Of a stretch of DNA of 42,313 nt, positions 1,858 to 40,151 are shown piece after piece (position 1 is the stretch's first letter; each line of letters opens with the position of its first letter). A program made the position numbers and the translations under genes. Under the pieces are notes generated by a model. That model searched no databases. It was not told the DNA's origin and worked only from the letters and a program-made list of their open reading frames with translations. Source of the stretch: an uncultured Lentisphaerales bacterium (lineage in GTDB: Bacteria; Verrucomicrobiota; Lentisphaeria; JABSQK01; UBA12247); NCBI GenBank assembly GCA_943788985.1, contig CALSSJ010000006.1:1-42313 (forward strand), given 5' to 3'.

Positions 1858-3330
1858 TCACCGGAGGCCGCCAGCCGGCCAAGTGACAGGGCCTGCTCGG
1901 TAGGCGCGTCGAACGGATCGGTCTACGAAGCGTGTTCGAACCCGGCAGGGAGACTCGCATAGGCGTGGATCGCGCTGACGCTCCAGCTCAGCCAACAACT
2001 GGTTGCGGAGTTCGCAACTGGTGTCGGTGTACTCCGGGTCCTCCGCCAGATTTGTCAGCTGATGTAGATCGCTGGCGCTCTCGTATAGCTCCACCCGCGG
2101 CGTTTATCGAAACCACGCAGAAAGTTCGGGGTATGATCGGGGTCGGCCCGGTGATGGATCATCCAGGCCTTGGGATTGCGGATCGGCCAACGATCCAGGG
2201 CAAAGTTGTGGATGTAAAGGAATCAGCCGGTGCGCCGCGCCCGTTGCGGGTACGGCAGCTTCCATTCGCGGGCCAGAGCCACATCGCGCTCGCGACCAAT
2301 GATAGCCTAATCGTCTTTGACAGCGGCTTCCCCCGTCACGCGCGGCCACAGGCTGGTGGCGGTCATCCCGGGCGCGGGTGCGCAGCTCGCGGCCTCGAGG
2401 AAGGTCGTGCCCAGATCCATCAGATTGGTCATTTCGTCAACCACCGTTCCAGCGGGGATCTGACCGGGCAGCCTGGCCCTGAGCGCGAATTCCGTGCCGA
2501 TGTCATCGAGGTCGCACCTGGCCCGGGGAAAGCCTGGAATTCCGTGGTTGCCACTGACCACGATGAGAGTGTTGTCGAACTCCCCTAGGATCTCAAGCTC
2601 TTTCAGCAATAAGCCCACTCCGGCATCTACAGCATGGCACTCCCTCAGGTAGTCGGCCACATCCTCGCGCACGTTGTCCACGTCCGAAGAGCTCGCCGGC
2701 ATGCCCCGTTCCAAGTCATCAGGCTCTAGTCCCCAGAGCCTGTGGCCCGAGCCCTTCTTCCAGTGCGATGGGTATTGGTCGGCTCCCACTAATAGCAGAA
2801 TGACTGGTCGGCGTGGCGCTTGCCCAGAAGGCCGCGAACCTTTTCTCGCACTTCTGCGTACAGCGGTGCCTTGGCTGCCACCACAGATAGACCCGCGTCC
2901 ATGGCAGCACAGGCGTCCTCGGAAAACTAACTAAAGCGCCTCCCGGCCTAGTTTAAGTAGTGGGATTCACCCCCAAGGAGCCTCTTGGCCAGGCACGCCT
3001 GGCCCAAGGCTTTGTAGGTAGTTCGGGTGCGATAGCCGGCGGCGAGCACACGCGGAAAGGTTGGGATCTCGTCAACCCAGACCGCCCCTGCAGGATGGCC
3101 GCAAGGCGAGTCTGCCAAAAGTACCGCCCCGAGAGAATCGAGCTGCGACAAGGCGTACGGTGGGCGCTGGAACGACCGCATTGCTGAAGGGCGCTCGCTC
3201 GTGCGCGATTCGGGCGTTGGCAGGCGTGCGGCCGATTTGGTGCAGCGCAGACACGTGTGCCACGTCCTGTTAGGCGCGCGCATACCGACCCAGTCGTCGG
3301 CGAATGCGAAAAGAATGTTCGCCGGCAAGA
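1858..3330 (-). pseudogene. Degraded S1-family sulfatase (sulfamidase-like)
   Basis: Collinear fragments in different frames: NILFAFADDW; (C)TPCRSSILSGRYFWQT; DYLRECHAVDAGVG...DNTLIVVSGNHGIPGFPRAR; ELYESASDLHQLTNLAEDPEY...RDPR. Many indels and stops. Confidence 0.9.
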
Positions 3331-3468
3331 TTTCTTTCTTCTCTTGGTTCGACTCGGCAGTTCTGCGCAACGGGACATGGTGCAGGGCGTCCACCGAGAA
3401 CAACCATAGAAGCTTGCGAGCCATTCATCAATGAGCCTCTCTCACCAGGCACAATCGGCAACTGCCCC

Positions 3469-5673
3469 ATGACCCGAAAGGCGATCGCTATTCTGATTGC
3501 GCTCGTCGGTGTCGTGGCCGCGTCTGTGGCGCTGTGGCTGGATTCTGCAGAGCACCCTCCCCCACCGCCTGCGACTTACGTGGGCGCCAGCACCTGCCAG
3601 GCTTGTCATGAAGACGCCTTTCAAGCCTGGCAAGGCTCGGACCACGACAAGGCCATGGATCTCGCGACTGACGAGACGGTACTGGGCGACTTCAACGACA
3701 ACACTTTCGTGGATCATACGGGACGCACCAGTCGCTTCTTTCGCGACGGCAGCGCCTTCAAAGTGGAAACCACGGGTGCAGATGACAGCTTGCAGACGTT
3801 TACCGTGGAATACGTGTTTGGGCACGACCCGCTACAACAGTATTTGATTCCGTTCCCCAACGGCCGCTACCAGTGCCTGACCATCGCCTGGGATACCAAA
3901 AAGAAACAGTGGTTTGACCTCTACGTCGGCCAAGATGTCCCGCCGGGCGACTGGTTGCACTGGACTGGACGAGCGCAAACCTGGAACACGATGTGCGCCG
4001 AGTGCCACTCGACCAACCTCCAAAAAGGCTACGACATGGAGACCGACTCCTACAAGACCACCTGGAGCGAGATCGACGTGAGCTGCGAAGCCTGCCACGG
4101 GCCCGCATCTAACCATCTCACCTGGGCGGCCCAGTCCAAGCGCAAGCGAGCCCGCGACACCACCTGCGGCCTTGAGACCCAGCCCAAGCTCTATGACTCC
4201 AAGGAGCATGTGGCCGCCTGCAGTAATTGCCACGCCAGACGCCAGATGTTTCAGGACATCAGCCACGCCTCGCGCCCGGACGAAAACTTCGCCACTGAGT
4301 TGCTCCGTGAGAATACCTACCACGCAGACGGCCAGATCAGGGATGAGGTCTATGTCTACGGGTCCTTTATCCAAAGTAAGATGTACCACAATGGCGTGAG
4401 CTGCAAAGACTGCCACGATCCCCACAGCCTCAAGCTCAAACACGAAGGAAATGCCCTCTGTGCACAGTGCCACGACCCAGCAGTTTTCGACACCAAGACG
4501 CACCATTTCCACGATGACAACGCGGGTGCCCAGTGCACCAACTGCCACATGCCGGAGCGCGTGTACATGGGAGTGGATTGGCGCGCCGACCATAGCATCC
4601 GGATCCCTCGCCCGGATCTCACGGCGTCGACCGGCTCGCCGGATGCCTGTAGCCGTTGTCACGATGACAAGCCGCTGGCCTTTAGTGTCGATGCCTTTCG
4701 CAACTGGTTCGGCGAGGACAAGCCAGACCATTTCGGGACCACCCTGGCCGACGTAAGGAAGAACGTCCCGGATGCCTTGACGCGCCTCGTGGCAGCCTGC
4801 CAAAACCGCGAACTCCCGGACCTGGCCCGGGCGACGATGGTGGCCGAGCTGATTCGCTACGATTCCCCGAAGGCCCGGCAGGCAATTGAATTCGCGCTGC
4901 GGGACGAGAGCCCGCTGGTGAGGCGTGCTGCGGTCAATGCTCTGGCAGAGGCCGCTCCCCCGGCGCTGCTCGTGCCCCTCCTGCGTGATCCAGTGGCAGG
5001 GGTCCGCACCGCAGCAGCGGCCGTTCTGGCCCCGCAGTCCGCACAACTCGTGGGTGCCCACCAAGAGGCCTTCATCGAGGCCAAGCGCGAGCTGATCCTC
5101 GCAACGGCCTACACCGGGGACATGCCAGGCAGCCGGCACAACTTAGCGAATCTCTACGCTGCAGTCGGAGACCATGAGGCCGCTGAGGCGCAATACCGAG
5201 CAGCCTTGAAGCTGGACGCCCGCTTTGTCCCCGCGGGTATGAATCTCTCGGTAATGCTCAGCCAGCAGGGGCGCAATGAGGAAGCCCGCAAGCTCCTCGA
5301 GGGCATCGTTGCCAACGACCAGAATTTTGGCGAAGCTGCATTCTCACTGGGGTTATTGCAAGCAGAGATGCGCGACTATCCAGCGGCCGTCGAATCCCTC
5401 CGTAAGGCCACAGTTCTGATGCCTCAGCACGCCAGAGCATTCTATAATCTCGGAAACCTAGAGTCCTTCTTAAAGCACAACGACGCTGCAGAAAGCGCGC
5501 TGAATACTGCCTTCTCCCTGCAGCCGGGAAACCCGCAGATCGTCCACGCCCTCGCTCAGTTCTATGTCCAGTCTGGGGACATCCAGGGTGCGAAGCTGCT
5601 GCTGGGCAGACTCGGGCACCATCCGCAAATCGCGCAGCAACTGGCTGCCGCCATCCAGGCGATGGAACACTAG
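3469..5673 (+). CDS. Multiheme (8 x CxxCH) c-type cytochrome with HEAT and TPR repeats
   Basis: N-terminal hydrophobic anchor/signal; CQACH, CAECH, CEACH, CSNCH, CKDCH, CAQCH, CTNCH, CSRCH; HEAT-like ALRDESPLVRRAAV / LLRDPVAGVRTAAA; C-terminal TPRs. Start ATG 3469. Confidence 0.9.
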   Translation: MTRKAIAILIALVGVVAASVALWLDSAEHPPPPPATYVGASTCQACHEDAFQAWQGSDHDKAMDLATDETVLGDFNDNTFVDHTGRTSRFFRDGSAFKVETTGADDSLQTFTVEYVFGHDPLQQYLIPFPNGRYQCLTIAWDTKKKQWFDLYVGQDVPPGDWLHWTGRAQTWNTMCAECHSTNLQKGYDMETDSYKTTWSEIDVSCEACHGPASNHLTWAAQSKRKRARDTTCGLETQPKLYDSKEHVAACSNCHARRQMFQDISHASRPDENFATELLRENTYHADGQIRDEVYVYGSFIQSKMYHNGVSCKDCHDPHSLKLKHEGNALCAQCHDPAVFDTKTHHFHDDNAGAQCTNCHMPERVYMGVDWRADHSIRIPRPDLTASTGSPDACSRCHDDKPLAFSVDAFRNWFGEDKPDHFGTTLADVRKNVPDALTRLVAACQNRELPDLARATMVAELIRYDSPKARQAIEFALRDESPLVRRAAVNALAEAAPPALLVPLLRDPVAGVRTAAAAVLAPQSAQLVGAHQEAFIEAKRELILATAYTGDMPGSRHNLANLYAAVGDHEAAEAQYRAALKLDARFVPAGMNLSVMLSQQGRNEEARKLLEGIVANDQNFGEAAFSLGLLQAEMRDYPAAVESLRKATVLMPQHARAFYNLGNLESFLKHNDAAESALNTAFSLQPGNPQIVHALAQFYVQSGDIQGAKLLLGRLGHHPQIAQQLAAAIQAMEH

Positions 5674-5775: not shown

Positions 5776-6855
5776 TCATGTCCTTTTTTCACTGGCGCAG
5801 TGCTGGCAGTTGGGCAGCAGTGAGTGCCGAACCCCGTTGCAGTCCGCACAGCTTTCGAACAGCGCGGTGCCACAAGCCGGGCAGGCATACGGCTCATTTT
5901 CCTGCTCACTTTGCGGCAAGATGATTTTATGGACAGTCCGCCTGGTCCAGAATAGAAACTTGCGCGGGCCAATCCGAATTGGGTACTCGCAGATTGGGCA
6001 CAGAAACCGCTCGTAGGCCTCGCGGTATTGCTTGGTCAACCACTCCGTTTTCGGGAATGCGACCACCCGGATGAAATAGACCAGCAGCTTTGCTACTGCC
6101 ACAAGCAGCACCAGAATTAGGATATACTTGAAGTACCTGGACGGAAAATACTCATGGATCACGCGAGAGACTTTTAGCAGCGTTGCCACGCCGTAGCCCA
6201 GGAACAATGGAAAGTAAATGCTGCTGCGCTTGCGGAGCAACAGAAATGCCCCAGCGGCTAATAACGGAATCAGAATCAGCAGTTGAAAGCAAGCCAGGCG
6301 CATCTGGTGTTTCGCCCGTAGCTGACGGTACTCCTCCTGTGCAGGCTTTCGCTGTTTTTCCAGCAGTCCTTCGGTGGCCAGCTGGTCGGCGGCCAGGGCA
6401 CGCTTCTGCTCAGTCAACGTTGAAAGCTCGATATTGTGAGCCTGATACTGCTTTTGGCTTTCCAGGAAGTGCGACAGACTGCTGGACAACGTCTCCTGCT
6501 CCGTGGCGGAAAGTGCCACCGACTTTTGGATCGAAAGCTTCTGCAGCTCGATCAGTTGATTGATGGTCTTCTGCAGATTCCGGGAGCTGTCGCTCACCAG
6601 CTTCAATTCGGCCTGCTTGTTCGCGATGTTGCGCGCAACCCTGCCTAAGTCGCCATTCAGCCGCTGCTGCTTTGTGACCAGCTTCTGGTCGACATGGGCC
6701 TTCTCGATCACATCATACTGAGGCCCGGCGATGGACTGGATGTCTTTTACCAAAAAGCCGAGGACCCAGTAGACTAAAACCGCGAAAATCGCGGTGAACA
6801 GTCGAATCAAAAATCGGTGAACCCAGGGCCCTTTTGGCTGTGCCTTCGAACTCAT
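5776..6855 (-). CDS. Membrane protein with coiled-coil and C-terminal Cys-rich zinc-ribbon domain
   Basis: Start MSSKAQ at 6855 with a purine-rich RBS; N-terminal TM, long coiled coil, three further TMs, then CPIC, CPAC, CADC, CQHC. Confidence 0.8.
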   Translation of the reverse strand: MSSKAQPKGPWVHRFLIRLFTAIFAVLVYWVLGFLVKDIQSIAGPQYDVIEKAHVDQKLVTKQQRLNGDLGRVARNIANKQAELKLVSDSSRNLQKTINQLIELQKLSIQKSVALSATEQETLSSSLSHFLESQKQYQAHNIELSTLTEQKRALAADQLATEGLLEKQRKPAQEEYRQLRAKHQMRLACFQLLILIPLLAAGAFLLLRKRSSIYFPLFLGYGVATLLKVSRVIHEYFPSRYFKYILILVLLVAVAKLLVYFIRVVAFPKTEWLTKQYREAYERFLCPICEYPIRIGPRKFLFWTRRTVHKIILPQSEQENEPYACPACGTALFESCADCNGVRHSLLPNCQHCASEKRT

Positions 6856-7085
6856 CTCCGCCCTCCCCTTCCCGTGCTTGTTCGCCTGCTGATCAACGTA
6901 TCGGCTTGGGGCGGATTTGCAAAGAATTGCGGCCGGCAAGCTAGTAAAAAAGGATCGACTCGAGTCGATCTTTTCGGTCCTTCCGCCAAACGGCTTTAAC
7001 CGATTCCCAAGTCTGTGTCGCAAGGGAGTAGAGCGGCGCCGTATATGGTCAAAGAGGCCGCAACTGAGAGGCATAGACCGAAGAC

Positions 7086-10260: not shown

Positions 10261-11275
10261 AGCTACAGCGCAAGCCCCCCCGTAGCGAGCTCCAGAACTC
10301 AGACGGTTGTCCCAAGTAATGGCCGACAGCCAACAGCCGGAGTCAGGAGAGCACCAAAAACTGCTCGTAATTCAGAGCATATCACTTTGGAGGGAACAGG
10401 CCGGGTTCAACCTGGGACGTCTGAGACCTGGAGCTCCTCTCCAGCCTTCCCCTACTTCTGAGCTTCCTGTCAAAAAGCGGGGTCGTCGCGTGCCGCGTTA
10501 TACAGGGAGGCCGGAGAGGTCCAATCTTCAGCTTTGGGAACTCAGAGCAGGTCGCGGGCTTTCACGCGCTGATATTGGCTCACCAGCTGGACCATTACAT
10601 CTTACGAGCGAGATCAAGGACCAACATGCCGCGACGGCGCAAATCACGAGCCGTTTAAGCCGCAGAGAAGTCCGATAGGAGGCCCAGCGCTCTTACCAAG
10701 TGCGTGTCTGCCGCTGACCGTGCCGTTGGCGCTGTAATCGGATTATCATTTTGCTCACCCGGCCCGGCGCTGAGCCCCTCGCTTCCATGAGGCGCTTCAA
10801 TACGAGCTTTCTCTCGGTAGCAGAAGATCGATGCCGCAACACCAATGATTGTCGCAGACTTGATAAGGGCCAAGACATTAGCAATTTATAGCAACTCGCA
10901 AATACTGGATTCGAGGGACACACGCTCGTACTCAGGCCCAAGCAGACTGTCTTGCGTCACTGCCGTAGTATGCCAAAGGCTACGGTGTAATCTCCGAACT
11001 CCTCAGAAACATTTTCGGAAGCCTGATTGGTGAGCGACAACAACGATGGAACACGTAAAAGACAATCGAATGCCCCCGTCAGGACGCATTGCGGGGCAGC
11101 ATTGTCGCGCAGCTTTTACCAGAAACGTGGGAAGGTCAGGAAGAAAGAAGCACGGGAGCCTAAAGGCAAACTCGCATCTACTGCGAACACGCCTTTCGGA
11201 CGTCTTGAGATCTAGGCCTCCCGCGCGGTCGCTGTCCGGCCGCAACGAATGGAGTGCTCTGGGTTGCGCTATTTC

Positions 11276-12985
11276 TCAAGTAGCGTCGCGAATCCCAGGC
11301 GGGATCAACGACCGCCGTGAACAATGAGCCAGCGCTTGGGCCGTCTGCTCATGCCGCTGACGAGCCAGATGGCCGCCACTGTGCTCCGCGAGAATCGCGA
11401 GAATGTCCTGTGGTGCCAGATCGCCTCCGCCTAAGCGACTGCGCGCGCGAAGCTCTACCGAAAGTTCCCGAAAATCCGCCGGACTGAAGGCTGCCGTTTG
11501 TTCCTGAAACCTCTCTCGTTCCGGTTTTGCGAACTCCGCAAGCTGGATATCGCTCCGCTCCAGCACATGCCGCACGAAGTCTTCCCGATCTTCCCCTTCC
11601 GGGTCAAAAATCGGCAAGTGCAGTCCACAGCGACCGCTGCGTTTTAGGTCCGGCGCCAAGTTGTCTGGCCGAGCCGTCATCAGCACCCAGACGATTCGCC
11701 CCCGATTGCGCGGATCGCCCATCATCTTGATCACATTCCCGAATAAGCGCTGCTCGGTATCATGGCTGTCACCACCAGGCCGAGCAAAAACCGTGTCTGC
11801 CTCATCGACCAGGATGATCACATTTCCCAGCACCTCTAGGACATTGCGGATCTTCTCGAAGATCTGATCCGTCTCACCAAAAAGAGAGCCGCGCAAGTTT
11901 TTCAGCACGAGCACGACGCGGTCACAGGCGTTGGCCCAGGCCAGCATGACGTAGGTCTTGCCCACGCCATTCGGGCCACTGACCAGAATTCCAACCGGTG
12001 CAATCTCCGGATCGCCGCTCCGCAACGCATCGGTCACGCGCGCCAACTCCTGCTTCAACGCGCGATTCCCCACTACGTCATCCATGCTATGCGCTGGGCG
12101 CACCAACTCGATGTGATCCCCCAGGCGGCTTTCCAGCAGGCGGTTCAGATGCTGTGCAAAATCCCGTCGCTGCACACGGCTGTTCTGGTAGCTGCCGCCC
12201 CGCACGATCTGCTGCATCCCCAGGAGCGTCATTCCTGCGCCTAGCTCGGCGAATTCCTGCTGCGATCCGGCCAGCTTCAGCGAGGAATCGTGACGCAGGC
12301 AATGACGGAGAAAGCGCTTCCGCTCGGCCACATCCGGCAGTGGGAGGTGAAGGGGGAGCATGTGCGGGAGTCGACGCAGCTCAGCATGCACCGCGCTGCT
12401 CGTTTCCGCAATACACAGCACCAAGTGCGGAGAATCCAGAAATTCCTGATCCGTCAGCCACTCTTTGAAGAAGATGAGGCGTTGCCGCTCAACATCCGTC
12501 ATCTGCGACGACGCACGATCCGGCAACAAGCTCTCGCAATGTTCTAGCACGACGCTTACCGTCACGCCAAGCCGTGAAGCTCCTCGACAGATCTTGCGCA
12601 ACAGCACGAGGGACGGCAGAATCATCGCTGAGCTTTTCGACAGTGCTTCGCCAAAGCTGCTCGTGGCCAGCTCCTCCTCTCCCTTCTCGAACAAGGCACG
12701 ATAGCAACGCAGGGCCAATGCAAGCCGCGGCTCCGACGTATCCGGATCCACGGGCGCTTGAAATTCGATGCCGGTAGCAATGTTATAGACGATCACCAGT
12801 CTCGCGTCACCGCCGAGCCTTTGGGCCAGATACTCCTGTAATGGCAGATAGTGCGTGCCCTCTCGGTCTGACAACCACGGGCAACGGAACACGTCAAAGA
12901 CGTTCCCGGTAAGGATAAACTGATTGGTCTGGCGCGAGTTGTACGCTGCGCGCAGCGAGGCCATGAATGGCAGGTCATCGCTCAT
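11276..12985 (-). CDS. Classical-clade AAA+ ATPase with degenerate N-terminal AAA-like domain
   Basis: Walker A GPNGVGKT, pore-loop region GSLFGETD, Walker B IILVDEAD, SRH MTARPDNLAPDLKRSGR. The N-terminal ~300 aa have a P-loop-like layout without GKT. Confidence 0.9.
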   Translation of the reverse strand: MSDDLPFMASLRAAYNSRQTNQFILTGNVFDVFRCPWLSDREGTHYLPLQEYLAQRLGGDARLVIVYNIATGIEFQAPVDPDTSEPRLALALRCYRALFEKGEEELATSSFGEALSKSSAMILPSLVLLRKICRGASRLGVTVSVVLEHCESLLPDRASSQMTDVERQRLIFFKEWLTDQEFLDSPHLVLCIAETSSAVHAELRRLPHMLPLHLPLPDVAERKRFLRHCLRHDSSLKLAGSQQEFAELGAGMTLLGMQQIVRGGSYQNSRVQRRDFAQHLNRLLESRLGDHIELVRPAHSMDDVVGNRALKQELARVTDALRSGDPEIAPVGILVSGPNGVGKTYVMLAWANACDRVVLVLKNLRGSLFGETDQIFEKIRNVLEVLGNVIILVDEADTVFARPGGDSHDTEQRLFGNVIKMMGDPRNRGRIVWVLMTARPDNLAPDLKRSGRCGLHLPIFDPEGEDREDFVRHVLERSDIQLAEFAKPERERFQEQTAAFSPADFRELSVELRARSRLGGGDLAPQDILAILAEHSGGHLARQRHEQTAQALAHCSRRSLIPPGIRDAT

Positions 12986-13027
12986 TCGCTACCGCCAGCT
13001 CGCTGCAGGTCAGGCATGAAAGTCAGG

Positions 13028-13816
13028 CTAAAGATTTCGGGCGGCAGCACCGCTCTCGGCTTCGCTCTGTTCCGCCGCCGACGGGGCTTTGGCCTGGGCT
13101 TCCGCAAGCATCGCTGCGAAGACGTCGTTTGCCTCAGTCTGGGCGCCAGCCTGTAGCAGCTCTTCGTCCAAGCCTTGCTCCTCGACGGCAGGCGCAGCGA
13201 GCTCACCGGACAGCTTGGCTTGGGCGAGCAGTGTTGCCCGCCGCGTTTCGATCGCCTGCAAGTTGCGATCATCTAAATTTGAACTCAGCGCATTCAGGCG
13301 GTCATTCAGCGAGATGATCTGCTGGCTGCTGACGATATCAGCGATCGCCGCCGCCTCGCGGTTGCCTAGGTCCTTGATCCGGCTGTCCATCTCCTGCAAC
13401 TTCGTGCGGTAGTTCCCCACCTTGCCGCGCATCCCTTCGATCTCCTCCTGCAACGCATCCATTTGCGCATCAAGGCCCTGATCTTGGGCGTACAACGCAT
13501 TGAAAGCCTCCTGATACTTCGGCTCATTCGTCTGCTGGTACTTCAGCACCGCGCCCTGCATCTTGGTCTTTACCTCCTGCTGCTTGGTCGCGAGCTCCTC
13601 GCTCGAATTTCGTTTCTGCTCGAGCACCATCATCAGCTGGGCGACGGCCTCGCGGACCTCGCTGTATTGCTTGGTCCACTTCTCCCTAGTCTTCGAGAAT
13701 GTCGTTCGAACTCCACCTGGCGTGGTTAGCATTTTGTCGGTGGCGCCATCGACGTCCCCTCCGATTAACCCACCAAGGGTGACTATATAACGATATATCG
13801 ACCCGAACATACCCAT
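13028..13816 (-). CDS. PspA/IM30(Vipp1)-like coiled-coil protein (ESCRT-III superfamily)
   Basis: ~262 aa, all-helical; amphipathic N-terminus MGMFGSIYRYIVTLGG; long heptad hairpin; C-terminal AQAKLSGELA...LDEEL...FAAMLAE as in PspA; AAGGAG RBS before ATG 13816. Confidence 0.72.
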   Translation of the reverse strand: MGMFGSIYRYIVTLGGLIGGDVDGATDKMLTTPGGVRTTFSKTREKWTKQYSEVREAVAQLMMVLEQKRNSSEELATKQQEVKTKMQGAVLKYQQTNEPKYQEAFNALYAQDQGLDAQMDALQEEIEGMRGKVGNYRTKLQEMDSRIKDLGNREAAAIADIVSSQQIISLNDRLNALSSNLDDRNLQAIETRRATLLAQAKLSGELAAPAVEEQGLDEELLQAGAQTEANDVFAAMLAEAQAKAPSAAEQSEAESGAAARNL

Positions 13817-14087
13817 GGTATCAGGCTCCTTCACAAGGTTTTGGCGTAGCCGTCAAGATAACGGAAAAGAGAACGAAAGCAAAGGCAACTAGCACGGGTT
13901 AGGAGGATCGCTCCCCGCGCCACGGCCGCCGCCGAAACAGACTACCATGGAGCGAAGACGGCACCAATTCTTTCGAACATGCAGCTTTGCCGCATCGGTC
14001 CCTGCAATTTTGTGATCCTCTCTCGCTTCAGCCCCAAGTCTCGGTATAGTACGGCATTGCTGAACACAGACAAAGGGTGACCCCAAT

Positions 14088-15278
14088 ATGAGGCATGTGA
14101 TTGTAGCGCTGACAACAATTCTGTTGCTGGCGACTACCGCAACAGCGGTGGAAATGGACTGGAAACCAGAGTCCAAGTGGCGTCGCGGCAAGGGGACGAC
14201 TGTAGCGTCCCTGATTCGCAAAGCCGAGACCGCTGAGAAGCGCGGCCAATTTAAACGTGCGATCAAGATCTACGCGGACATCGAGACGCGGTCTGTGAAC
14301 CTGCGGAATCGCGCCAAGGCCGTTGTCATGCAGGGCATCTGCTACGACCGTCTGGGTAAGCCACACCCGGCCGCGGACAAATTCGCGCGGGCCGTAGATG
14401 AGTTCGGGACCTTCATCCCGTTCGCAGTCGTTCAGCAACACCAGATCGACATCGCGAACCGCTTTTATTTTGGAGAGAAAGAGCGGATGATGGGCTTGGC
14501 ATTCTCCAACGTGGACAAGGCGTTGGAGATTTACGACAGCGTCGCCGAGCACGCCCCCTACGGTGCCCTGACTCCCACCGCCCTCTACCGCGGGGGCTTG
14601 ATCGCCCAGCAGCTCAAAAACTATGGCGGCGCGATCGAGCGATTCGAAAAGCTACTCAAGCGGTTCCCGCCTAACCATTCGCTTGCCGTTGACACCCGGG
14701 TAGATCTGGCAAACACGCTCCTGCTCTGGGCCGCACAGGGTGATGGCGACGGTACGCTGGTCGCCCGCGCGAAGCGTGAGCTCGAGACCCTACGCAAGAC
14801 CGCTGGTGAGCATGCGCGCATCGCTGAAATCGACTCCTTGCTGGGGTCATCGAGAGAGATGGAGGCAGCACGTCTGCTCTACTTGGGCGAATTCTACCAA
14901 AGAGACGCACATCCCCGATTCGATGCCGCGCGGCGCTATCTGCAGCAAGTCGTCACCAATTTTTCTGACACTGCCAGTGCTGGTGCCGCCAGCGCCCTGC
15001 TCTCCGCCCTAAATATGCATAGCGCAGCCCTCGGTGAGAGCGAGGAACTCACACAGGAGCTTGAAAAGATGCCTGAGCTGCCGCCAGCGCCCGCCCCGCA
15101 GACGCAGGCAGACGCCCCGCGGACCGTATCACCGCCGCAGGCAACCACTCGTACACTTCCGCCCCACCCGGTGGAAAGTGCTGAAGAACCAGCACCGAAA
15201 CACCAGTCACCGCGTTCCAGCGGTCGCTGGCTTCGTCCGCTGGATGACCTTAACCTTGGCGGAGAGGCCAACGAATGA
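14088..15278 (+). CDS. bamD: Outer membrane protein assembly factor BamD-like TPR protein
   Basis: Signal peptide, TPRs (ALEIYDSVAEHAPYG, AIERFEKLLKRFP, LGEFYQR...AARRYLQQVVTNFSDT); overlaps lptE (ATGA). Confidence 0.78.
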   Translation: MRHVIVALTTILLLATTATAVEMDWKPESKWRRGKGTTVASLIRKAETAEKRGQFKRAIKIYADIETRSVNLRNRAKAVVMQGICYDRLGKPHPAADKFARAVDEFGTFIPFAVVQQHQIDIANRFYFGEKERMMGLAFSNVDKALEIYDSVAEHAPYGALTPTALYRGGLIAQQLKNYGGAIERFEKLLKRFPPNHSLAVDTRVDLANTLLLWAAQGDGDGTLVARAKRELETLRKTAGEHARIAEIDSLLGSSREMEAARLLYLGEFYQRDAHPRFDAARRYLQQVVTNFSDTASAGAASALLSALNMHSAALGESEELTQELEKMPELPPAPAPQTQADAPRTVSPPQATTRTLPPHPVESAEEPAPKHQSPRSSGRWLRPLDDLNLGGEANE

Positions 15279-15790
15279 ATCGCATCTTCCTTCTACTCGC
15301 AACCGCGGCTCTTTTCTGTGGCTGCAGCCATTATCAACTCGGTTCCCTGACACATCCGGATCTTGAAGCCATCAGTTTAGGCACACTCAAGAACGACACG
15401 ACCAATCCGCGTTTGGGGCATTTTTTGAAGCAGTCCTTGCCGACAGCCTTCGTGAGAGACGGCGGCGTCAGCATCCAACGCGACGCGACGGCGTCCCTGG
15501 ACACCACCATCACCCGCTTTCTGCTGAATGGTGTAGGCGAGGTCCCGACCCAACTCGATGACAGCGATCAGGATTCGTACCGCACATCCGTCTACGATGT
15601 TTCGGTAGACGTCACCTACACGCTCCGGCGTGTGAGCGACAATTCAGTAGTGCTCGAGTCGCGCACCGTGACCGGCCGCGCGCGCTTCTCAGAACTAGGT
15701 GACCTCAACGCAACCTTGGAAGAAGGTGCCCAGCGCGCAGTGACTGATGCAGCAAACCAGATCGTCACCGGCGTTACGGAGGCTTGGTAG
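15275..15790 (+). CDS. lptE: LPS assembly lipoprotein LptE
   Basis: Lipobox FCGC followed by HYQLG, 171 aa, C-terminal helix ending VTEAW. Confidence 0.8.
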   Translation: MNRIFLLLATAALFCGCSHYQLGSLTHPDLEAISLGTLKNDTTNPRLGHFLKQSLPTAFVRDGGVSIQRDATASLDTTITRFLLNGVGEVPTQLDDSDQDSYRTSVYDVSVDVTYTLRRVSDNSVVLESRTVTGRARFSELGDLNATLEEGAQRAVTDAANQIVTGVTEAW

Positions 15791-17474: not shown

Positions 17475-18203
17475 ATGCTGAAAAATCCCGTCAAGCGTCA
17501 CTATTTCACCTTAGTAGAACTCTTAGTCGCAATGGGACTACTGAGCGTCATGATGTTGCTCATGGTAGAGCTTTCCAACCAGTCGCAGCAGTTGTGGCGG
17601 TCCACGGAGCATTCCACACGCGCCTACGAGAACTCACGGACAGCCTTCGACCAGTTGGAGCGCGACATTAAGTCCATGATTGCCAGCAGCGCGCCTAACA
17701 GGCAGGTCAAATTTGAGGTATTGACCTCTCGTCCTGACGGTCCTTCTCTCGATCCGAGCGACTGCCTGCTCTTCGCGGTCGTCTCGAGTCAGGCCCCTTA
17801 TGCCAATTCAGTTACCCGCTACAACGAGATTATCTACCGGCACCATGTCTCCCCTTCTGAGCCAGACACTCAGTATTCACTCCAACGGCAAATGGTTAGT
17901 GACAACGACGCCACCAACTGGAATTGCCTGAATCCGGATCCAGACTGGCATGAAAACGAAATTTTCGCTGGAGAAGGCAAATTTGAGACCATGATCTCAG
18001 GTGTCAGCGAATTTGAGATCAAGTTTTACGACATAAACAACAACCGAATCCCGGCAGGGACCTATGCCACACTTCCCAATCGCGTGGTGGTTAATATGGT
18101 CGTATTTGACGAAGCGCTGAGCGACGAAGTAGCCACCTTGCGGTCCCAGACAGAGCGTACGTTTTCGAAAGTGTTTTTCTTGGCGAATCTGGACGAGCAA
18201 TGA
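17475..18203 (+). CDS. Minor pilin/pseudopilin (PulJ/PilW-type; Verru_Chthon cassette protein C-like)
   Basis: YFTLVELLVAMGLLSVMM...AFDQLERDIKSM. Confidence 0.8.
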   Translation: MLKNPVKRHYFTLVELLVAMGLLSVMMLLMVELSNQSQQLWRSTEHSTRAYENSRTAFDQLERDIKSMIASSAPNRQVKFEVLTSRPDGPSLDPSDCLLFAVVSSQAPYANSVTRYNEIIYRHHVSPSEPDTQYSLQRQMVSDNDATNWNCLNPDPDWHENEIFAGEGKFETMISGVSEFEIKFYDINNNRIPAGTYATLPNRVVVNMVVFDEALSDEVATLRSQTERTFSKVFFLANLDEQ

Positions 18204-20587
18204 GAAAGATTCGAGAATATAAGCCCGGACAGCAGGATCGCGGCGTTGCGGTAGTCTTGACGATCGGCGTTCTTGGGATGATGCTGATGCTTACCATGGC
18301 CTTTGCCGCCTCTGCCCTGATGTCGCACCGCATAGCGACACTCAATCGCGATACCGTGCTATCGCGGCTCGCGGCCGAAATGGGCGTGCAGCGTGCCTAT
18401 GTACACCTGAATACAGAGCTTTCCAATCTCAACGACATGCGCAATCTATTTCCTGCAACCAAGCCGGGGGTCGATGGCCATATCGGGCCTGACACCGCAA
18501 GTACTGCTTGGGATGGCAGGACCTATTGGTTCAGCGAAAACGATGTCGATAGCTTGGGCATCCGTGAGGCATTTGCCCATCAGTTGGCGGGCGTAGATAT
18601 CACCCCGGACGACACCCATGCCGCGCCCCACGAAGACGCTGGCTGGATTCATGTCTACCACCCGGACAATGCCACCGAGATCATAGCACGTATGTCCTAT
18701 GTCTTGATCGACGAGTCTGGGAAGATCGACCCGAATTACGCCATCAGTCAAGGCGTCGCTGAGGGCAGCGAGACAACCGCTCGCTATGGGCTCTCCCCGG
18801 CTGATCTCAATCTCGCTGGTGCCCTCCCTTCCGCACTGTCTGGTGATCTGCAATACGACAGCCACAGCGGGGGCGATCTGGCGACGACCATGCAATGGCT
18901 TTCTCACTATCATATCTTTCGCGCAGCAGACTCGGCTGAGGACAATTCCGACGCCGTGCTGGAATCACTTTTTCCGCATTCCTACGACATCGAAGCCTTC
19001 AATGACAGCCTCGTGGATCGGCACCGCTTCGATCTAACGAACGCAGATTGGGACGCATTTGGGAACGACGTCGCCGCATCCAGCCTCACCTCCGCCGCCA
19101 GTGAATTCTGGAACGGCACTGCCCCCGCAGCAAATATCGGTGGCATCCCATGGCTTGCGGAATGCTCGAGCACATTTCTCCAGAATCAGATCGCGGCCAA
19201 CCTGATAGACTATTGCGACAGCGACAGCATTCCAACCACAGATAGCCAGACTGAGCCAAGCTACCTTGGCCTCGAACTCGTGCCGTACATTAACGAGCTC
19301 ATGTTTCAGCTGCGGGTTTACGACGCCGGGACCGAGCATCGCCTCTTGGTTCGCGTCTGGGCCGAACTGGCAAACATCTACGACACAGCCTGTGGCAGTG
19401 GGGCCACACTGACCGTTGAGTTGACCTTGGCGAGTCCCAACCTGCCGTCTTCCCCCACAAGCCTGACCCTTATCTGGAACTCGTTAACATCCGATGTCCC
19501 GGCCCAGTCCTACACCTCATTGCGTGGCGTGTCCCAGGCGGGCGAAACCTCTATCGGAGCAGACACCTCGATCGAGAACATCACCGTGCAGGTCATCGCC
19601 GCTCGGCTCGAAGACAGCGCGGGAAACTTACTAGACTTTGCCACCTCACCGCCATCCCCAACTGCCGATGTCGCCGTGATCCTCCCCCTGTTTCGCAGCG
19701 TAGAGGTCAGTGATCCGCGCCAGAACCACACAGCGGCAGACTGGGAATGGGACCCACAAGGCTGGCAGTTTGGCTTCTCCACCACCACGACCTTGCTCGC
19801 GACAAACTCGAACTGCACCCCAGATCCTGGCGGCTCGCATGACCAGGAGGACGGCGCAACCGACCCGTGGGACGTCTCCACGGCCCACATTGCGAACTCC
19901 GCCATCACCACCCTATGGGAACTGGGTGCGATTCATCGTGGCCAAGCCTGGCGTACCATTCGCCTAACGCAATTTAATGAAACCCTCAGCGCTGCCCTTG
20001 GGCTGAGCGCCTACTCGCTGGGGGACGCCAACATTCTTGACCAAGTCAAGCTCGGCGGAGACAACTACTGCTACGGCAATCTAAATGCCAACTCAGATCG
20101 TCCCAACGCCCTTGCTGCCACCCTAGTAGGCCTCAGTGTCGGCGCCGGCTACTCCGCATCGACATCCGGAACTGCCACGATCAACTCCTCCTTGGCATTG
20201 GCCGCCATTGGCACCTCCCCGACCACCGCCGCTAGTGGCCAGTGGTTGTTTGAGAATGGGACCGCGGGCGTCACTAAGCCCATGTTTTCCCGTGGTGGGC
20301 TGGCACGAATCACCACTCTCTCCGATGGCACCATCTTCACCCAAGGTGTGGATGCGGCGCGCGAAGAAATCATCGGCAAGATCGCAAACATCATGACCAC
20401 ACGCCCCAACTACTTCACCATGATCATCACCGCCCAGAGCGTGCGAGATAACAAAGTCATGGGGGCACTTGGCACCTTCGACGCGGACACGGATGTGATT
20501 CGAGCCGAGGCGCGAATCATGGCCTATCTGTATCGGGACGCGTTGACCCACTCTTTCCGATTGATCCACTACGAGTACATCGAATGA
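18200..20587 (+). CDS. Large PilX/GspK-type pilin-like protein (Verru_Chthon cassette protein A-like)
   Basis: RGVAVVLTIGVL (no Glu+5), SRLAAEMGVQRA, LIDESGKIDPN, IAANLIDYCDSD, TTRPNYFTMIITAQ; ATGA-coupled to the upstream pilin. Confidence 0.78.
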   Translation: MRKIREYKPGQQDRGVAVVLTIGVLGMMLMLTMAFAASALMSHRIATLNRDTVLSRLAAEMGVQRAYVHLNTELSNLNDMRNLFPATKPGVDGHIGPDTASTAWDGRTYWFSENDVDSLGIREAFAHQLAGVDITPDDTHAAPHEDAGWIHVYHPDNATEIIARMSYVLIDESGKIDPNYAISQGVAEGSETTARYGLSPADLNLAGALPSALSGDLQYDSHSGGDLATTMQWLSHYHIFRAADSAEDNSDAVLESLFPHSYDIEAFNDSLVDRHRFDLTNADWDAFGNDVAASSLTSAASEFWNGTAPAANIGGIPWLAECSSTFLQNQIAANLIDYCDSDSIPTTDSQTEPSYLGLELVPYINELMFQLRVYDAGTEHRLLVRVWAELANIYDTACGSGATLTVELTLASPNLPSSPTSLTLIWNSLTSDVPAQSYTSLRGVSQAGETSIGADTSIENITVQVIAARLEDSAGNLLDFATSPPSPTADVAVILPLFRSVEVSDPRQNHTAADWEWDPQGWQFGFSTTTTLLATNSNCTPDPGGSHDQEDGATDPWDVSTAHIANSAITTLWELGAIHRGQAWRTIRLTQFNETLSAALGLSAYSLGDANILDQVKLGGDNYCYGNLNANSDRPNALAATLVGLSVGAGYSASTSGTATINSSLALAAIGTSPTTAASGQWLFENGTAGVTKPMFSRGGLARITTLSDGTIFTQGVDAAREEIIGKIANIMTTRPNYFTMIITAQSVRDNKVMGALGTFDADTDVIRAEARIMAYLYRDALTHSFRLIHYEYIE

Positions 20588-21117
20588 AACGCTGTCTCCT
20601 GGCCTGCTTCGTTGCGGCAGCCGCCGTGGCCGCTGAGCCCAGCATTCTGGATGAGCATCCCACGCCACAGCAGGTTATGGCTGACCTGTACAAGTATCTC
20701 ATCGAAGGCAACCATGCGGACCTCAAGGAGAATCAAAAGCGTGCCGCGCACTTCCACCGCGTTGCCGAGAAGGCCACCACCAGCGAGCGCAAGAAGGAGC
20801 TGAGTCGCTACTTCTCTGCTGGCTTTGCGGAGCTCGCAAAATCTAATCAGAAGATCGTGCAATGTCTTGCTGGCAACGACCTAGGCGATCTCGAATCACT
20901 ACTGGATCGCTACGACGAGCTTGAGGCCAAGATTCGCAAACACGACGGTCCACTGGTCAAGCGCGAATGGATGACGATGAGCGAAGTCCGAAGGCTGATG
21001 GCCACAGACGCTCCTTATTGGACGGAGTCTCCCCGGATTTTACCCTTTGCCCGCAAGCACTGGGATCCCAGCCAGCATCCCAGCAGAGCTAGCCGCTCCC
21101 GGAATCCCAAGAACTGA
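20584..21117 (+). CDS. Hypothetical secreted helical protein
   Basis: Signal peptide MKRCLLACFVAAAAVAA; ATGA-coupled to the upstream gene. Confidence 0.75.
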   Translation: MKRCLLACFVAAAAVAAEPSILDEHPTPQQVMADLYKYLIEGNHADLKENQKRAAHFHRVAEKATTSERKKELSRYFSAGFAELAKSNQKIVQCLAGNDLGDLESLLDRYDELEAKIRKHDGPLVKREWMTMSEVRRLMATDAPYWTESPRILPFARKHWDPSQHPSRASRSRNPKN

Positions 21118-25520: not shown

Positions 25521-26237
25521 ATGCCCCGTCGCGGATTTACACTGATCGAACTTCTCGTGGTGATCGTGATCATAATGATCCTGATGTCGCTGTTGCTACC
25601 GGCACTAGCCACTGGCCGCGAGCGTGGGCGCAGTACCGCGTGCACCAATAATCTAAAGCAACTGGCGTTGGCGACACACTCCTACGCGGATATCCACGAC
25701 GGCTGGGCCATTCCAGCGGACTTAGACAGGAGCTCGGCCTATCACCCGTGGCAGGACTATCTGCATGAAGAAGAGGGTATGGCTGCGGGGTCCTTTCGCT
25801 GCCCAACCATGACTTTAGGTATTAATCCGTTTGGCGCGTACGGCTCGGACCCTTTATCCGAAGTAGGCTATATCATGAACTGTCACCTACCCGGCGGCTC
25901 GAACTGGTCAATTTTAGGTAGCAGTATCACTGCCTCGCAAACCAGAGCCCAAGGCTGGACCAACACCTATGACGATCCAGTGCGGCTGGCGGCAATCGTA
26001 AACAGCTCTGAGAAGCTCCATCTCATGGATGTGGTCGAGGAACTGGCATTCTCCAGCAGTAATCTTGGCGTAATTCGCGATGAACAGACCGACTATGGCA
26101 CCTTGGGCACACCGCCTGGTGGATCGGATCGGCAGGTCGGCTACCATCATAATTATGCGTTTAATGCTCTGTTCGGCGATGGCCACGCAGAGCGTCTGAC
26201 GCAGGCAGCCCCGGATTCGTGGTGGGTAATTGAGTGA
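25521..26237 (+). CDS. Prepilin-type N-terminal methylation / DUF1559 / H-X9-DG protein
   Basis: [34 protein letters not shown]. Confidence 0.92.
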
Positions 26238-33140: not shown

Positions 33141-33923
33141 GTGCATGATTCGGGGAAGGACATGGTCTGGATGATTGCTCTATTCATGATGACTCTGACG
33201 GCCCGCGCCAATGTTGGTGGACAGGCTACCGGGGTTTACCTGTCTCCAGAGCAGGTCGCATCCCTGTCACAGGGGATTGCTACCGTGAAGATCGAGCGCG
33301 TGATTCCGGTGCTACTGAATGGCCATGTCTGGACGGAAGCACACTGCGCAGTCAATGAGACCTGGAAAGGTGAGCCAGCGGCGAATGTGATCGTGCGTCA
33401 GGCAGGCGGAACTCTGGGGGAGCTTCGCACACAATCGGGGCCGCGACCAGATTTTATGCCAGGAGAAGAGTGGCTGTTGGCAATGGTGCCATCCCCAGCC
33501 GGTGACTGGACATTGCTTGGTTTGGTGCACGGGGCTTGGAGACTCTCGGGAAACGAGGCAACCCGCGACTACGCAGGTGTGATCTTTGCGGCCCCGCCCC
33601 CGGCTGATATTGCGGAGGGCCGCTATGAGCACACCCCACTGACAGAGTTGCGCACGCGAATGAGCCCGCCCGATTTCGCTGCGATGGACACTCACGGGCA
33701 GCCTCGTGCTCCCAGCCAAGGAGACGAGGCCCCGAGGGAGGGGCTGCTCATGCACATAGCGCCCCCAACAGGCTCTGGGACGGAGGCGGTAGGAGGCGAG
33801 CAAGCCGCCTTGCTTCCACAGCGATCGACAACGCAGCCGGTTGCCGTTCGGCTCTTGCTGCTGGGACTCTTTTTAGTCCTGCTCTTTCTTATTGTCATCG
33901 GCTGTCGGCGGTCCTGTCGATGA
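33141..33923 (+). CDS. Secreted beta-rich protein with C-terminal TM anchor, coupled to the metalloprotease gene
   Basis: Signal peptide; VNETWKG...VRQAGGTLG...P.F.PGEEWLL; low-complexity linker; C-terminal hydrophobic helix + RRSCR; ATGA overlap. Start may be 33162. Confidence 0.78.
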   Translation: MHDSGKDMVWMIALFMMTLTARANVGGQATGVYLSPEQVASLSQGIATVKIERVIPVLLNGHVWTEAHCAVNETWKGEPAANVIVRQAGGTLGELRTQSGPRPDFMPGEEWLLAMVPSPAGDWTLLGLVHGAWRLSGNEATRDYAGVIFAAPPPADIAEGRYEHTPLTELRTRMSPPDFAAMDTHGQPRAPSQGDEAPREGLLMHIAPPTGSGTEAVGGEQAALLPQRSTTQPVAVRLLLLGLFLVLLFLIVIGCRRSCR

Positions 33924-39900: not shown

Positions 39901-40151
39901 CAATCGGCCCGGGCTGGAACGTTTTTGGCATCCGCGCCAGCGCCCCCTTCGCACCGCGCAACTGGCTCGAAGCACTCACCCCATCTGAAAGCCTTGAAGG
40001 CGTGATCTGGCACCTCGATTCCGGCACCTACAAGGCCACTGATCTCTGGTTACAACCCGGAATCGGCTACTGGGCCTACGGCAAAGAAATCCCGGCCCGT
40101 GAGCGTCTCCCCACACAATCCCCAACACCACACACAGCACCTCAGGAGTAA
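33920..40151 (+). CDS. Giant secreted metzincin (matrixin/M10-like) adhesin with MAM, Calx-beta, 4 HYR and cadherin-like repeats; frameshifted
   Basis: HEIGHAIGISH + Met-turn AAM; MAM (DDFDWT..GAT.S..TGP...GTNYIYVEAS...DIAVDNI); Calx-beta; HYR; NARP.V.DD...EDT repeats. ORFs 33920-37789, 37990-38307 and 38304-40151 join after correcting +1, +1 (~37760, ~37783) and -1 (~38248), giving ~2,076 aa. Confidence 0.85.
37010..37995 (+). repeat. Four tandem 246-bp coding repeats (82-aa HYR domains)
   Basis: Units start GACACC at 37010, 37256, 37502, 37748; DTEAPSITCPASVTI...ATFALGTTTETYRVTDAAGT...CSFTITVV. Confidence 0.95.

Follow-up and report, generated by a model that had tools for sequence, protein, structure and literature searches.

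A divergent PspA-like protein paired with a tandem AAA ATPase in an uncultured Lentisphaerales bacterium

Introduction

How polymers of PspA and of Vipp1/IM30 are dismantled is an open question. Here, we analyzed a gene pair which bears on it, located on a stretch of 42,313 nt from an uncultured Lentisphaerales bacterium (contig CALSSJ010000006.1 of assembly GCA_943788985.1); this whole stretch is called the window in the following. The pair encodes a PspA-like protein of 262 amino acids (aa), here named PspL, and an ATPase of 569 aa. The two genes form a real operon, in which a divergent PspA is paired with its own two-domain AAA ATPase. Operons of PspA with a tandem AAA protein are the most direct genomic candidates for a motor acting on such polymers, and the question raised by the locus is whether this ATPase remodels a PspL polymer.

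For eukaryotes and archaea this role is filled by Vps4, and ESCRT systems with Vps4 are described as confined to these two groups in the available text of Makarova et al. (2024; PMC11188069). According to a review from 2025, as far as it is accessible, a Vps4-like ATPase “appears absent in bacteria”, and the polymerisation of PspA must be regulated in other ways (PMC7619361). A genome survey described a dyad termed “PspA + inactive-Classical-AAA+Classical-AAA”, for which the accessible part proposes a role like that of Snf7/Vps4 in ATP-dependent remodelling of membranes (Ravi et al., 2024; mSystems 9:e00847-23, PMC11237479). The kind of system analyzed here is already predicted by comparative genomics in the available text of that survey, and the present instance is incremental. 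The original prediction for the window, which was made from the sequence without database searches, had stated that PspA-AAA neighbourhoods were noted bioinformatically and lacked functional characterisation. This agrees with the accessible text of Ravi et al. (2024), and among titles and beginnings of abstracts, with bioRxiv supplements not visible, no experimental test of the PspA and tandem-AAA dyad was found.

Homology of PspL to PspA and Vipp1

Both genes are located on the minus strand, to which all coordinates within them refer. The PspL gene (13028..13816, 262 aa from ATG) encodes a helical protein of a divergent family of the PspA/Vipp1/ESCRT-III superfamily. It is followed by the ATPase gene (11276..12985, 569 aa) after an intergenic spacer of exactly 42 nt (12986..13027), which contains no terminator-like site. 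The compact two-gene unit that had been proposed was confirmed by these open reading frames (ORFs) on the same strand.

As a single sequence, PspL matches the Pfam family PspA_IM30 (PF04012) with an E-value of 5.9e-8 and 33.0 bits. This is 0.9 bits under the cut-off of 33.9, and the match is restricted to profile positions 101-217, the second half of the model. PspA_IM30 is also the commonest family among the close relatives of PspL (22 of 25 aligned sequences), where it is always a weak match. A word-index search found 44 relatives at 40% identity or more. The 25 close relatives were used for a narrow alignment and profile, and 81 rows for a wide family alignment and profile. An hmmsearch of 1.84 billion cluster representatives with the narrow 25-row alignment gave 342 clusters at E<=1e-3, of which 163 reach E<=1e-10, and most of the clusters among those listed have 240-290 aa and match end to end. 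When 80 family representatives were scanned, 11 matched PspA_IM30 at E<=1e-3. PspL is, as judged by its sequence, a distinct family missed by the PspA model of Pfam, since none of the 80 exceeds the cut-off and no other Pfam family recurs among them.

The relationship to PspA becomes visible in profile comparisons. With hhalign, the 81-row profile was aligned to canonical PspA with a probability of 96.9% and an E-value of 1.7e-10 over 214 columns, where canonical PspA was represented by five proteins of the phylum of the window which score 68-140 bits on PF04012. In the same comparison, only 54.6% and 1.2e-4 were reached with the 25-row profile. In an hmmsearch of PDB sequences with the 81-row profile, the top match was a Vipp1/PspA sequence (6zvr_B, E 1.5e-10), followed by 7 further Vipp1/PspA sequences at E<=8e-7, with 8qbv, 8qbr and 8qbw near 2e-9. 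Coronavirus spike S2 coiled coils also score 1e-8 to 1e-7 in this search. The single sequence or the 25-row profile found generic coiled coils only among PDB sequences, and no PspA or Vipp1. No Pfam match of PspL to Snf7 was obtained. Homology to bona fide PspA/Vipp1 is significant at the profile level over most of the length of PspL. These results support the view that PspL is a remote homologue of PspA/Vipp1 within the ESCRT-III superfamily, as had been predicted.

The hallmarks of the family are an N-terminus of the form MGxF...R9...LGGL, an “EAIAD” motif around residue 159, a C-terminal helix with F233 and, within the close clade, a terminal R-x-L/I. The N-terminal segment (residues 1-22, MGxF...YRYIVTLGGLIGG; 13751..13816) is hydrophobic and conserved, with R9, L14, G15, G16 and L17 invariant among the 25 close relatives, and the hhalign comparison of the 25-row profile matches it to the N-terminus of canonical PspA. 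It is a candidate for a membrane-binding helix similar to alpha0. It had been described as amphipathic, which stands in part: residues 1-18 are hydrophobic (mean hydrophobicity <H> 0.53), while the helical moment is only moderate (muH 0.39) and the segment is modelled at low confidence, with a predicted local distance difference test score (pLDDT) under 50. Residues 33-206 (13199..13720) are predicted by AlphaFold2 as a long helical hairpin (33-96 and 99-206), which would correspond to alpha1 and alpha2/3(+4) of PspA/ESCRT-III. The C-terminal helix (residues 217-242, ELLxAGxxSEAxDVFAAMLAE; 13091..13168) is conserved, appears as a helix of low confidence in the model and is followed by an acidic tail. 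F233 and M236 are invariant in the 25-row alignment, and F233 is kept in 56 of the 81 family rows. The C-terminus R-x-[LI], present in 23 of the 25 close relatives, is a trait of the close clade.

The AlphaFold model has a mean pLDDT of 74.9, with values of 82-95 over residues 31-200. When it was compared by Foldseek, 8 of the 10 top matches were Vipp1/PspA, with E-values between 2e-3 and 5e-2. The predicted fold is consistent with PspA, and the argument for homology rests on the sequence profiles.

Domain structure of the ATPase

The ATPase is conserved over its full length. From its motifs and from structure prediction, it is a tandem AAA protein with a catalytically dead first domain (D1), a live second domain (D2) and a conserved C-terminal extension, and it is no relative of Vps4. 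A word-index search in which 8000 candidates were scored identified 245 homologues at E<=1e-5, and at least 430 relatives were found in genome contigs. Conservation of residues was judged on 22 family members.

D1 (residues 1-295; 12101..12985) shows a degenerate AAA fold in the AlphaFold2 model, with a pLDDT of 92.6 and a predicted template modelling score of 0.88. Foldseek found at least 500 matches at E<=1e-3 (top 4e-8), and among the matches listed all are classical AAA proteins, namely p97, AFG2, Cdc48, Pex1/6, NSF, proteasome ATPases and Msp1. No Pfam family was found for residues 1-295, and no Pfam match to MIT. The sequence LTGNVFDV stands in place of the P-loop lysine, and VVLEHCES is found instead of the acidic pair of Walker B. 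D1 is without GK[ST] or DE, and the single Walker A match of the whole ATPase lies at residue 337. From the replacement of the P-loop lysine and of the acidic pair, D1 is judged to be inactive.

D2 (residues 296-510; 11456..12100) is identified as an active module of the classical AAA type by Pfam, by sequence matches in the PDB and by its position in a tree. It matches PF00004 over residues 333-457 with 66.6 bits, far above the cut-off of 21.2, and the best PDB sequence matches of the ATPase are p97/VAT (E 2e-21). The catalytic motifs that had been listed for this protein were all recovered, and most of their positions are invariant. Walker A is GPNGVGKT (residues 337-344; 11954..11977), with G337, N339, G340, G342, K343 and T344 invariant, and Walker B is IILVDE (residues 390-395; 11801..11818), with D394 and E395 invariant. 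Pore loop 1 reads SLFG (residues 367-370; 11876..11887); in the relatives it varies as Y/W/L-F/L/Y-G, and G370 is invariant. Sensor-1 T437 is present and conserved. The arginines of the second region of homology are found as R449-S-G-R452 (11630..11641), of which R452 is invariant; the most distant clade lacks R449. The features of the classical AAA clade, which are a score above the Pfam cut-off, Walker A and B, pore loop 1 and the arginine fingers, are all present, so that the assignment as a classical AAA ATPase was confirmed. The C-terminal extension (residues 511-569, QRRxQTLxAxxHCSRxSLxP; 11279..11455) follows D2. Its residues Q547, A551 and L560 are invariant, and C555 and S556 nearly so.

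In addition, a maximum-likelihood tree was calculated from 25 AAA domains, 11 of them from family members and the others from FtsH, a Cdc48-like tandem protein and CdvC-like proteins of the same phylum. In this tree, which has limited sampling, contains only domains from the phylum of the window and is midpoint-rooted with an arbitrary root, the ATPase family forms its own clade with 100/100 support on a very long branch.

Conservation of the gene pair

The synteny of the pair was surveyed in the best 80 ATPase loci of the at least 430 relatives. These loci belong to Lentisphaerae, Verrucomicrobia, Sumerlaeota, Planctomycetota, Poribacteria, Acidobacteriota, Hydrogenedentota, Spirochaetota, Desulfobacterota and others. 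Of the 80 loci, 47 have a PspL gene upstream and in the same orientation as the ATPase gene, or 47 of 73 when the count is limited to loci whose upstream flank reaches 900 nt; the remaining 7 have a shorter flank. The pairing is thus conserved across phyla. In 25 loci PspL lies directly upstream. In 18 loci it is found 1.9-3.3 kb upstream with genes of an ATP-binding cassette (ABC) system between, and in 4 loci about 2.8-2.9 kb upstream, where the intervening genes were missed by the crude gene caller. Another 14 loci have ABC genes and no PspL within the available flank, and 12 have neither.

The long form of the 18 loci has the gene order PspL, a gene for a solute-binding protein (SBP)-like product, BPD_transp_1, ABC_tran and AAA, and the 4 further loci show the same spacing. 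A cultivable carrier of the long operon is Acanthopleuribacter pedis KCTC 12899 (L063). The intervening genes encode an SBP-like protein of 350 aa with a weak match to NMT1, a BPD_transp_1 permease and an ABC_tran ATPase. A broader hidden Markov model (HMM) recovered the same 47 PspL loci, and an HMM of canonical PspA matched 13 of the 47 neighbouring ORFs. With the broader HMM, no PspL match was found downstream of the ATPase gene or on the opposite strand in the 80 loci.

Within the phylum of the window both families are rare: the D1 domain was found in 8 of 151 genomes and PF04012 in 8 of 81. At least 14 pairs of PspL and ATPase matches co-occur, by equal size of the longest contigs, among the closest relatives of the window. 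A search of the 151 phylum genomes with the 25-row PspL profile recovered only the genome of the window itself. This is an undercount, and it was not used for co-occurrence statistics; the PspL gene which adjoins the ATPase gene in genome G080 was missed there and is found by plain hmmsearch with an E-value of 8e-20. With hundreds of homologues of both proteins and a conserved synteny, the pairing goes far beyond chance.

Several related loci show additional features. In eight loci of Poribacteria (L030, L050, L051, L054, L059, L062, L069 and L072), a WD40 beta-propeller protein of about 670 aa precedes the adjacent PspL-AAA pair, and a conserved pair of genes for proteins of 382 aa and 147 aa follows it on the opposite strand. 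This context is a lineage-specific extension of the PspL-AAA module. One locus labelled as Candidatus Bathyarchaeia archaeon (L032, DATKVG010000055.1) encodes a bacterial-type ATPase with 32% identity and has a PspL gene 2.9 kb upstream, which reflects either mis-binning or a transfer into an archaeon. In four loci (L011, L012, L015 and L016, around 2800-3900), where no PspL gene lies within the flank, a family of 278 aa without Pfam match (F13) is located between the genes for the ABC ATPase and the tandem AAA protein. F13 was considered as a second PspA-like partner and rejected, with an hhalign probability of 0.2% against the PspL profile and no Pfam match to PspA or Snf7. F13 may correspond to the partner given as “SIG+TM+Snf7” by Ravi et al.

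RNA-library evidence

Parts of the window are present in 8 metatranscriptome runs from 2 studies. RNA contigs were compared at an identity of at least 99% for 4 of these runs, which cover both studies. They cover much of both genes; some parts had no contig in some runs, which has no weight either way. The 42-nt spacer is bridged by contigs in 3 of the 4 runs (X1 12861-13172, X2 12822-13107 and X4 12679-13087). These contigs weakly support a co-transcription of the two genes. A bridging contig does not equal a single transcript, and carry-over of DNA is possible since a further contig of X1 (13745-14300) also crosses the divergent intergenic region upstream of PspL.

Possible mechanism and alternative explanations

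We slightly favour a mechanism in which PspL polymerises on the inner membrane and the tandem AAA protein remodels or recycles this polymer, by analogy with ESCRT-III and Vps4. Such a polymer-remodelling mechanism is plausible. PspL would bind the stressed inner membrane via its hydrophobic N-terminal helix and polymerise via the helical hairpin. The ATPase could form a hexameric double ring, as other classical AAA proteins do. The D1 ring, unable to hydrolyse ATP, may serve in assembly or in docking of the substrate, and docking could take place either via this inactive ring or via the C-terminal extension. The D2 ring would provide the ATPase site and the aromatic pore loop. We infer that the ATPase grips a terminus of PspL, most likely the conserved C-terminal helix with the acidic tail, which would then be threaded through the pore of D2. 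Threading would extract PspL subunits, and the polymer would be remodelled or recycled in this way. Functionally, this might equal the action of Vps4 on ESCRT-III with an unrelated module for substrate recognition.

Several observations weigh against this mechanism. PspL alone stays under the Pfam cut-off and none of the 80 family representatives exceeds it. Foldseek with the PspL model gave nothing at E<=1e-3. In a VIA-align comparison of PspL with 48,161 chains, unrelated helical hairpins tie with PspA at Z 10-12: PspA (4whe) is 6th with Z 11.7 and Vipp1 14th, while IpaB, Smc, the dynein stalk and EmrA are comparable, so that this comparison is non-discriminating. The RNA contig over the divergent intergenic region weakens the transcript evidence. 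The loci with ABC genes alone or with neither ABC genes nor PspL upstream indicate that the ATPase is not always a neighbour of PspL, and the ABC importer encoded between the two genes in many relatives allows other substrates. The ATPase has no MIT-like recognition domain.

The strongest alternative is that PspL is a regulator or a membrane adaptor which inhibits or recruits the tandem AAA protein; the real clients of the ATPase would then be other proteins, for instance membrane proteins that have been damaged, or the ABC importer encoded in the long operons. A precedent is given by E. coli, where PspF, an AAA+ protein, is kept inactive by PspA until the membrane is stressed, according to the available part of the review (PMC7619361). 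The genes for SBP, permease and ABC ATPase between PspL and the AAA gene in 18-22 loci fit this explanation, as do the 12 loci with neither PspL nor ABC genes in the available flank, and the predicted inactive ring of D1 is of a docking type that may bind an adaptor. However, the ATPase is without DNA-binding or sigma-54-interaction features and belongs to the classical and not to the NtrC clade, and the commonest adjacent form, which is also the minimal one and that of the window, consists of two genes with no other client co-encoded. We regard this explanation as less likely than polymer remodelling.

It is rather improbable that the ATPase is instead an assembly chaperone, which would prime or unfold autoinhibited PspL monomers, load them onto the membrane and promote their polymerisation. 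Chaperone-like assembly factors are discussed as partners of PspA in the accessible text of Ravi et al. (2024; PMC11237479). The order of PspL before AAA and the tight spacing would also fit a co-production of both proteins. Against this, most classical AAA proteins that have aromatic pore loops act in disassembly or unfolding. That the two genes are mere neighbours with unrelated functions, as the ATPase loci without PspL might suggest, is very improbable in view of the 47 loci, out of 80 spread over many phyla, with a same-strand PspL gene upstream, and of two families which are rare in the phylum sample and yet co-located here.

Beyond the mechanism in which the tandem AAA protein recycles the PspL polymer, a broader hypothesis can be put forward tentatively. 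A bacterial motor for ESCRT-III recycling might have arisen independently of Vps4, in which the dead first ring would replace MIT in recognising the PspA-type polymer and the second ring would pull subunits; the long operons might then couple remodelling to a cell-wall-tethered ABC importer. If true, this would overturn, at least functionally, the statement on the absence of Vps4-like ATPases in the accessible part of the review (PMC7619361). The gene pair of the window is the simplest form, two genes without accessory proteins, and is suited for reconstitution in vitro.

Genomic context

A Shine-Dalgarno-like AAGGAG (13826..13831, minus strand) is located 9 nt ahead of the ATG of PspL at 13816. 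An alternative GTG start at 13834 would give a protein of 268 aa and overlaps this motif. The ATG is favoured because of the position of AAGGAG 9 nt before it. The divergent intergenic region of 271 nt (13817..14087) is common to the operon and a gene for a TPR protein, and it presumably contains the operon promoter; a promoter scan that included it found no sigma-70 consensus site. Terminator-like sites occur at chance level (3 found, 3.7 expected), and no Rfam match was found anywhere in the window. The region of about 1 kb 3' of the ATPase gene (10261-11275) contains no convincing gene, no ORF that matches a family and no Rfam match. RNA-library contigs of all 4 runs examined cover positions 11000-11158 or more of this region.

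The divergent gene pair at 14088-15790 had been read as bamD-lptE, and a link of the operon to the cell envelope had been proposed from it. The first gene encodes the TPR protein, whose N-terminus is signal-peptide-like and has no lipobox cysteine. Its score on the BamD model is 43 bits, where the cut-off is 81.4, and it scores equally for YbgF. The second encodes a lipoprotein of 171 aa (15275..15790), which resembles LptE both in its Atlas features (0.96) and in its structure (TM 0.83) and has no Pfam match to LptE; the assignment as LptE-like is a reasonable lead. The proposed link was not sustained: in the 80 related loci there are 0 LptE-like and 2 weak TPR matches, and since these neighbours do not recur, the adjacency carries no weight.

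A second PspA locus was found elsewhere in the genome of the window (contig C15:17164-20382). It contains two tandem pspA genes of the canonical type which are apparently broken. PF04012 positions 2-74 and 81-197 are located in different frames with a TGA inside, and the upstream copy retains positions 19-108 only. A multi-pass membrane protein of 258 aa is encoded after the pspA pieces, and the same layout is intact in genomes G035 and G080. The broken genes are either pseudogenes or assembly errors.

Other genes of the window encode a variety of proteins. A protein of 364 aa (5776-6870, minus strand) has a membrane segment at its N-terminus, followed by a long coiled coil and additional membrane segments, and Cys-rich motifs similar to zinc ribbons at its C-terminus. 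No family could be assigned to it with confidence; its gene is located at a distance of 4.4 kb from the ATPase gene, with sugar-metabolism genes and an AraC regulator between. A run of genes without Pfam family (17475-21114, plus strand) has a prepilin-type N-terminus (FTLVELLVAM) at its start, and one of its products is a protein of 795 aa; the run looks like a pseudopilin or secretion cluster of the Planctomycetes-Verrucomicrobia-Chlamydiae (PVC) type. DUF1559/N-methyl proteins are encoded at 165-1172 and 25521-26234. A multihaem cytochrome c of 789 aa (3304-5670, plus strand) is fused to HEAT and TPR repeats. At 33920-40148 (plus strand), a secreted protein of 1289 aa with matrixin, MAM and HYR domains is followed by a cadherin/Big_9 repeat protein of 615 aa. 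A role of the gene pair in anti-phage defence was considered with PADLOC and rejected, as only weak, generic coiled-coil and AAA matches were obtained (best IetA 2.2e-5, DruC 5e-4).

Comparison with known systems

The canonical Psp and Lia systems (PspFABC, LiaIHGFSR) share with the window an effector of the PspA family and a likely role in membrane stress. However, the partner PspF of the canonical Psp system is a transcription activator of the NtrC type, whereas the AAA+ protein of the window is predicted to be a motor of the classical clade. The original prediction had noted that pspF, pspB, pspC and liaRS are not nearby, and indeed a search of the 39 ORFs called for the window found no families of the PspB, PspC, PspF, LiaI/F or LiaRS type.

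Cdc48/p97/VAT are tandem AAA proteins like the ATPase of the window, and both of its domains find their best matches in sequence and structure among them. They differ in having a double-psi-barrel N domain and two nucleotide-binding AAA domains; the ATPase of the window has no N domain and has lost the hydrolysis motifs of D1. The identity is about 30% or less, and the Cdc48 model TIGR01243, the best match in NCBIfam, scores 57.9 bits against a cut-off of 802.65.

In the ESCRT-III/Vps4 system (CdvB/CdvC), as in the window, a polymer protein of the superfamily is encoded directly upstream of a classical AAA protein with a pore loop. The common logic, a polymer with an ATP-driven extractor, is likely by analogy. 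The partner in the window stands on the PspA/Vipp1 side of the superfamily, whereas that of Vps4 is on the Snf7 side. Vps4 and CdvC consist of one AAA cassette and an MIT domain, which binds the tails of ESCRT-III, in contrast to the two AAA modules of the window ATPase without MIT. The latter scores 27.1 bits on the CdvC model NF041006, which has a cut-off of 650, and its active domain is located apart from the CdvC-like AAA proteins of the phylum in the 25-row tree. The proposed analogy to Vps4 therefore holds for function at best, and not for descent, in view of the inactive D1, the lack of MIT and the separate clade.

The closest known counterpart is the dyad of Ravi et al. (2024; PMC11237479), to which the following comparison refers within its accessible text. 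In both cases a PspA homologue adjoins a protein with two AAA domains, of which the N-terminal one is inactive, and the function suggested for the published dyad agrees with that proposed here. The ATPases are likened here by the described architecture and not by sequence. Published examples are AEY64321.1/AEY64320.1 of Clostridium sp. BNL1100 and the operon of OGG56892.1 from Ca. Handelsmanbacteria. The latter is given as PspA, SBP, transmembrane (TM) protein, ABC-ATPase, TM+Snf7 and inactive-AAA+AAA. Longer operons with a solute-binding protein, an ABC permease and an ABC ATPase were also found among the relatives of the window pair, so that the Handelsmanbacteria layout was recovered independently; this comparison covers the SBP-like gene, without the OmpA part of the published SBP. 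The Clostridium example has the order AAA-then-PspA, whereas the window shows the minimal two-gene form with PspA-then-AAA. Unlike the partner in the published dyad, the PspL subfamily never reaches the cut-off of PspA_IM30 (0 of 80). New here are the minimal variant of the PVC type, a partner family outside the PspA model of Pfam and an ATPase family that forms a distinct, long-branched AAA clade.

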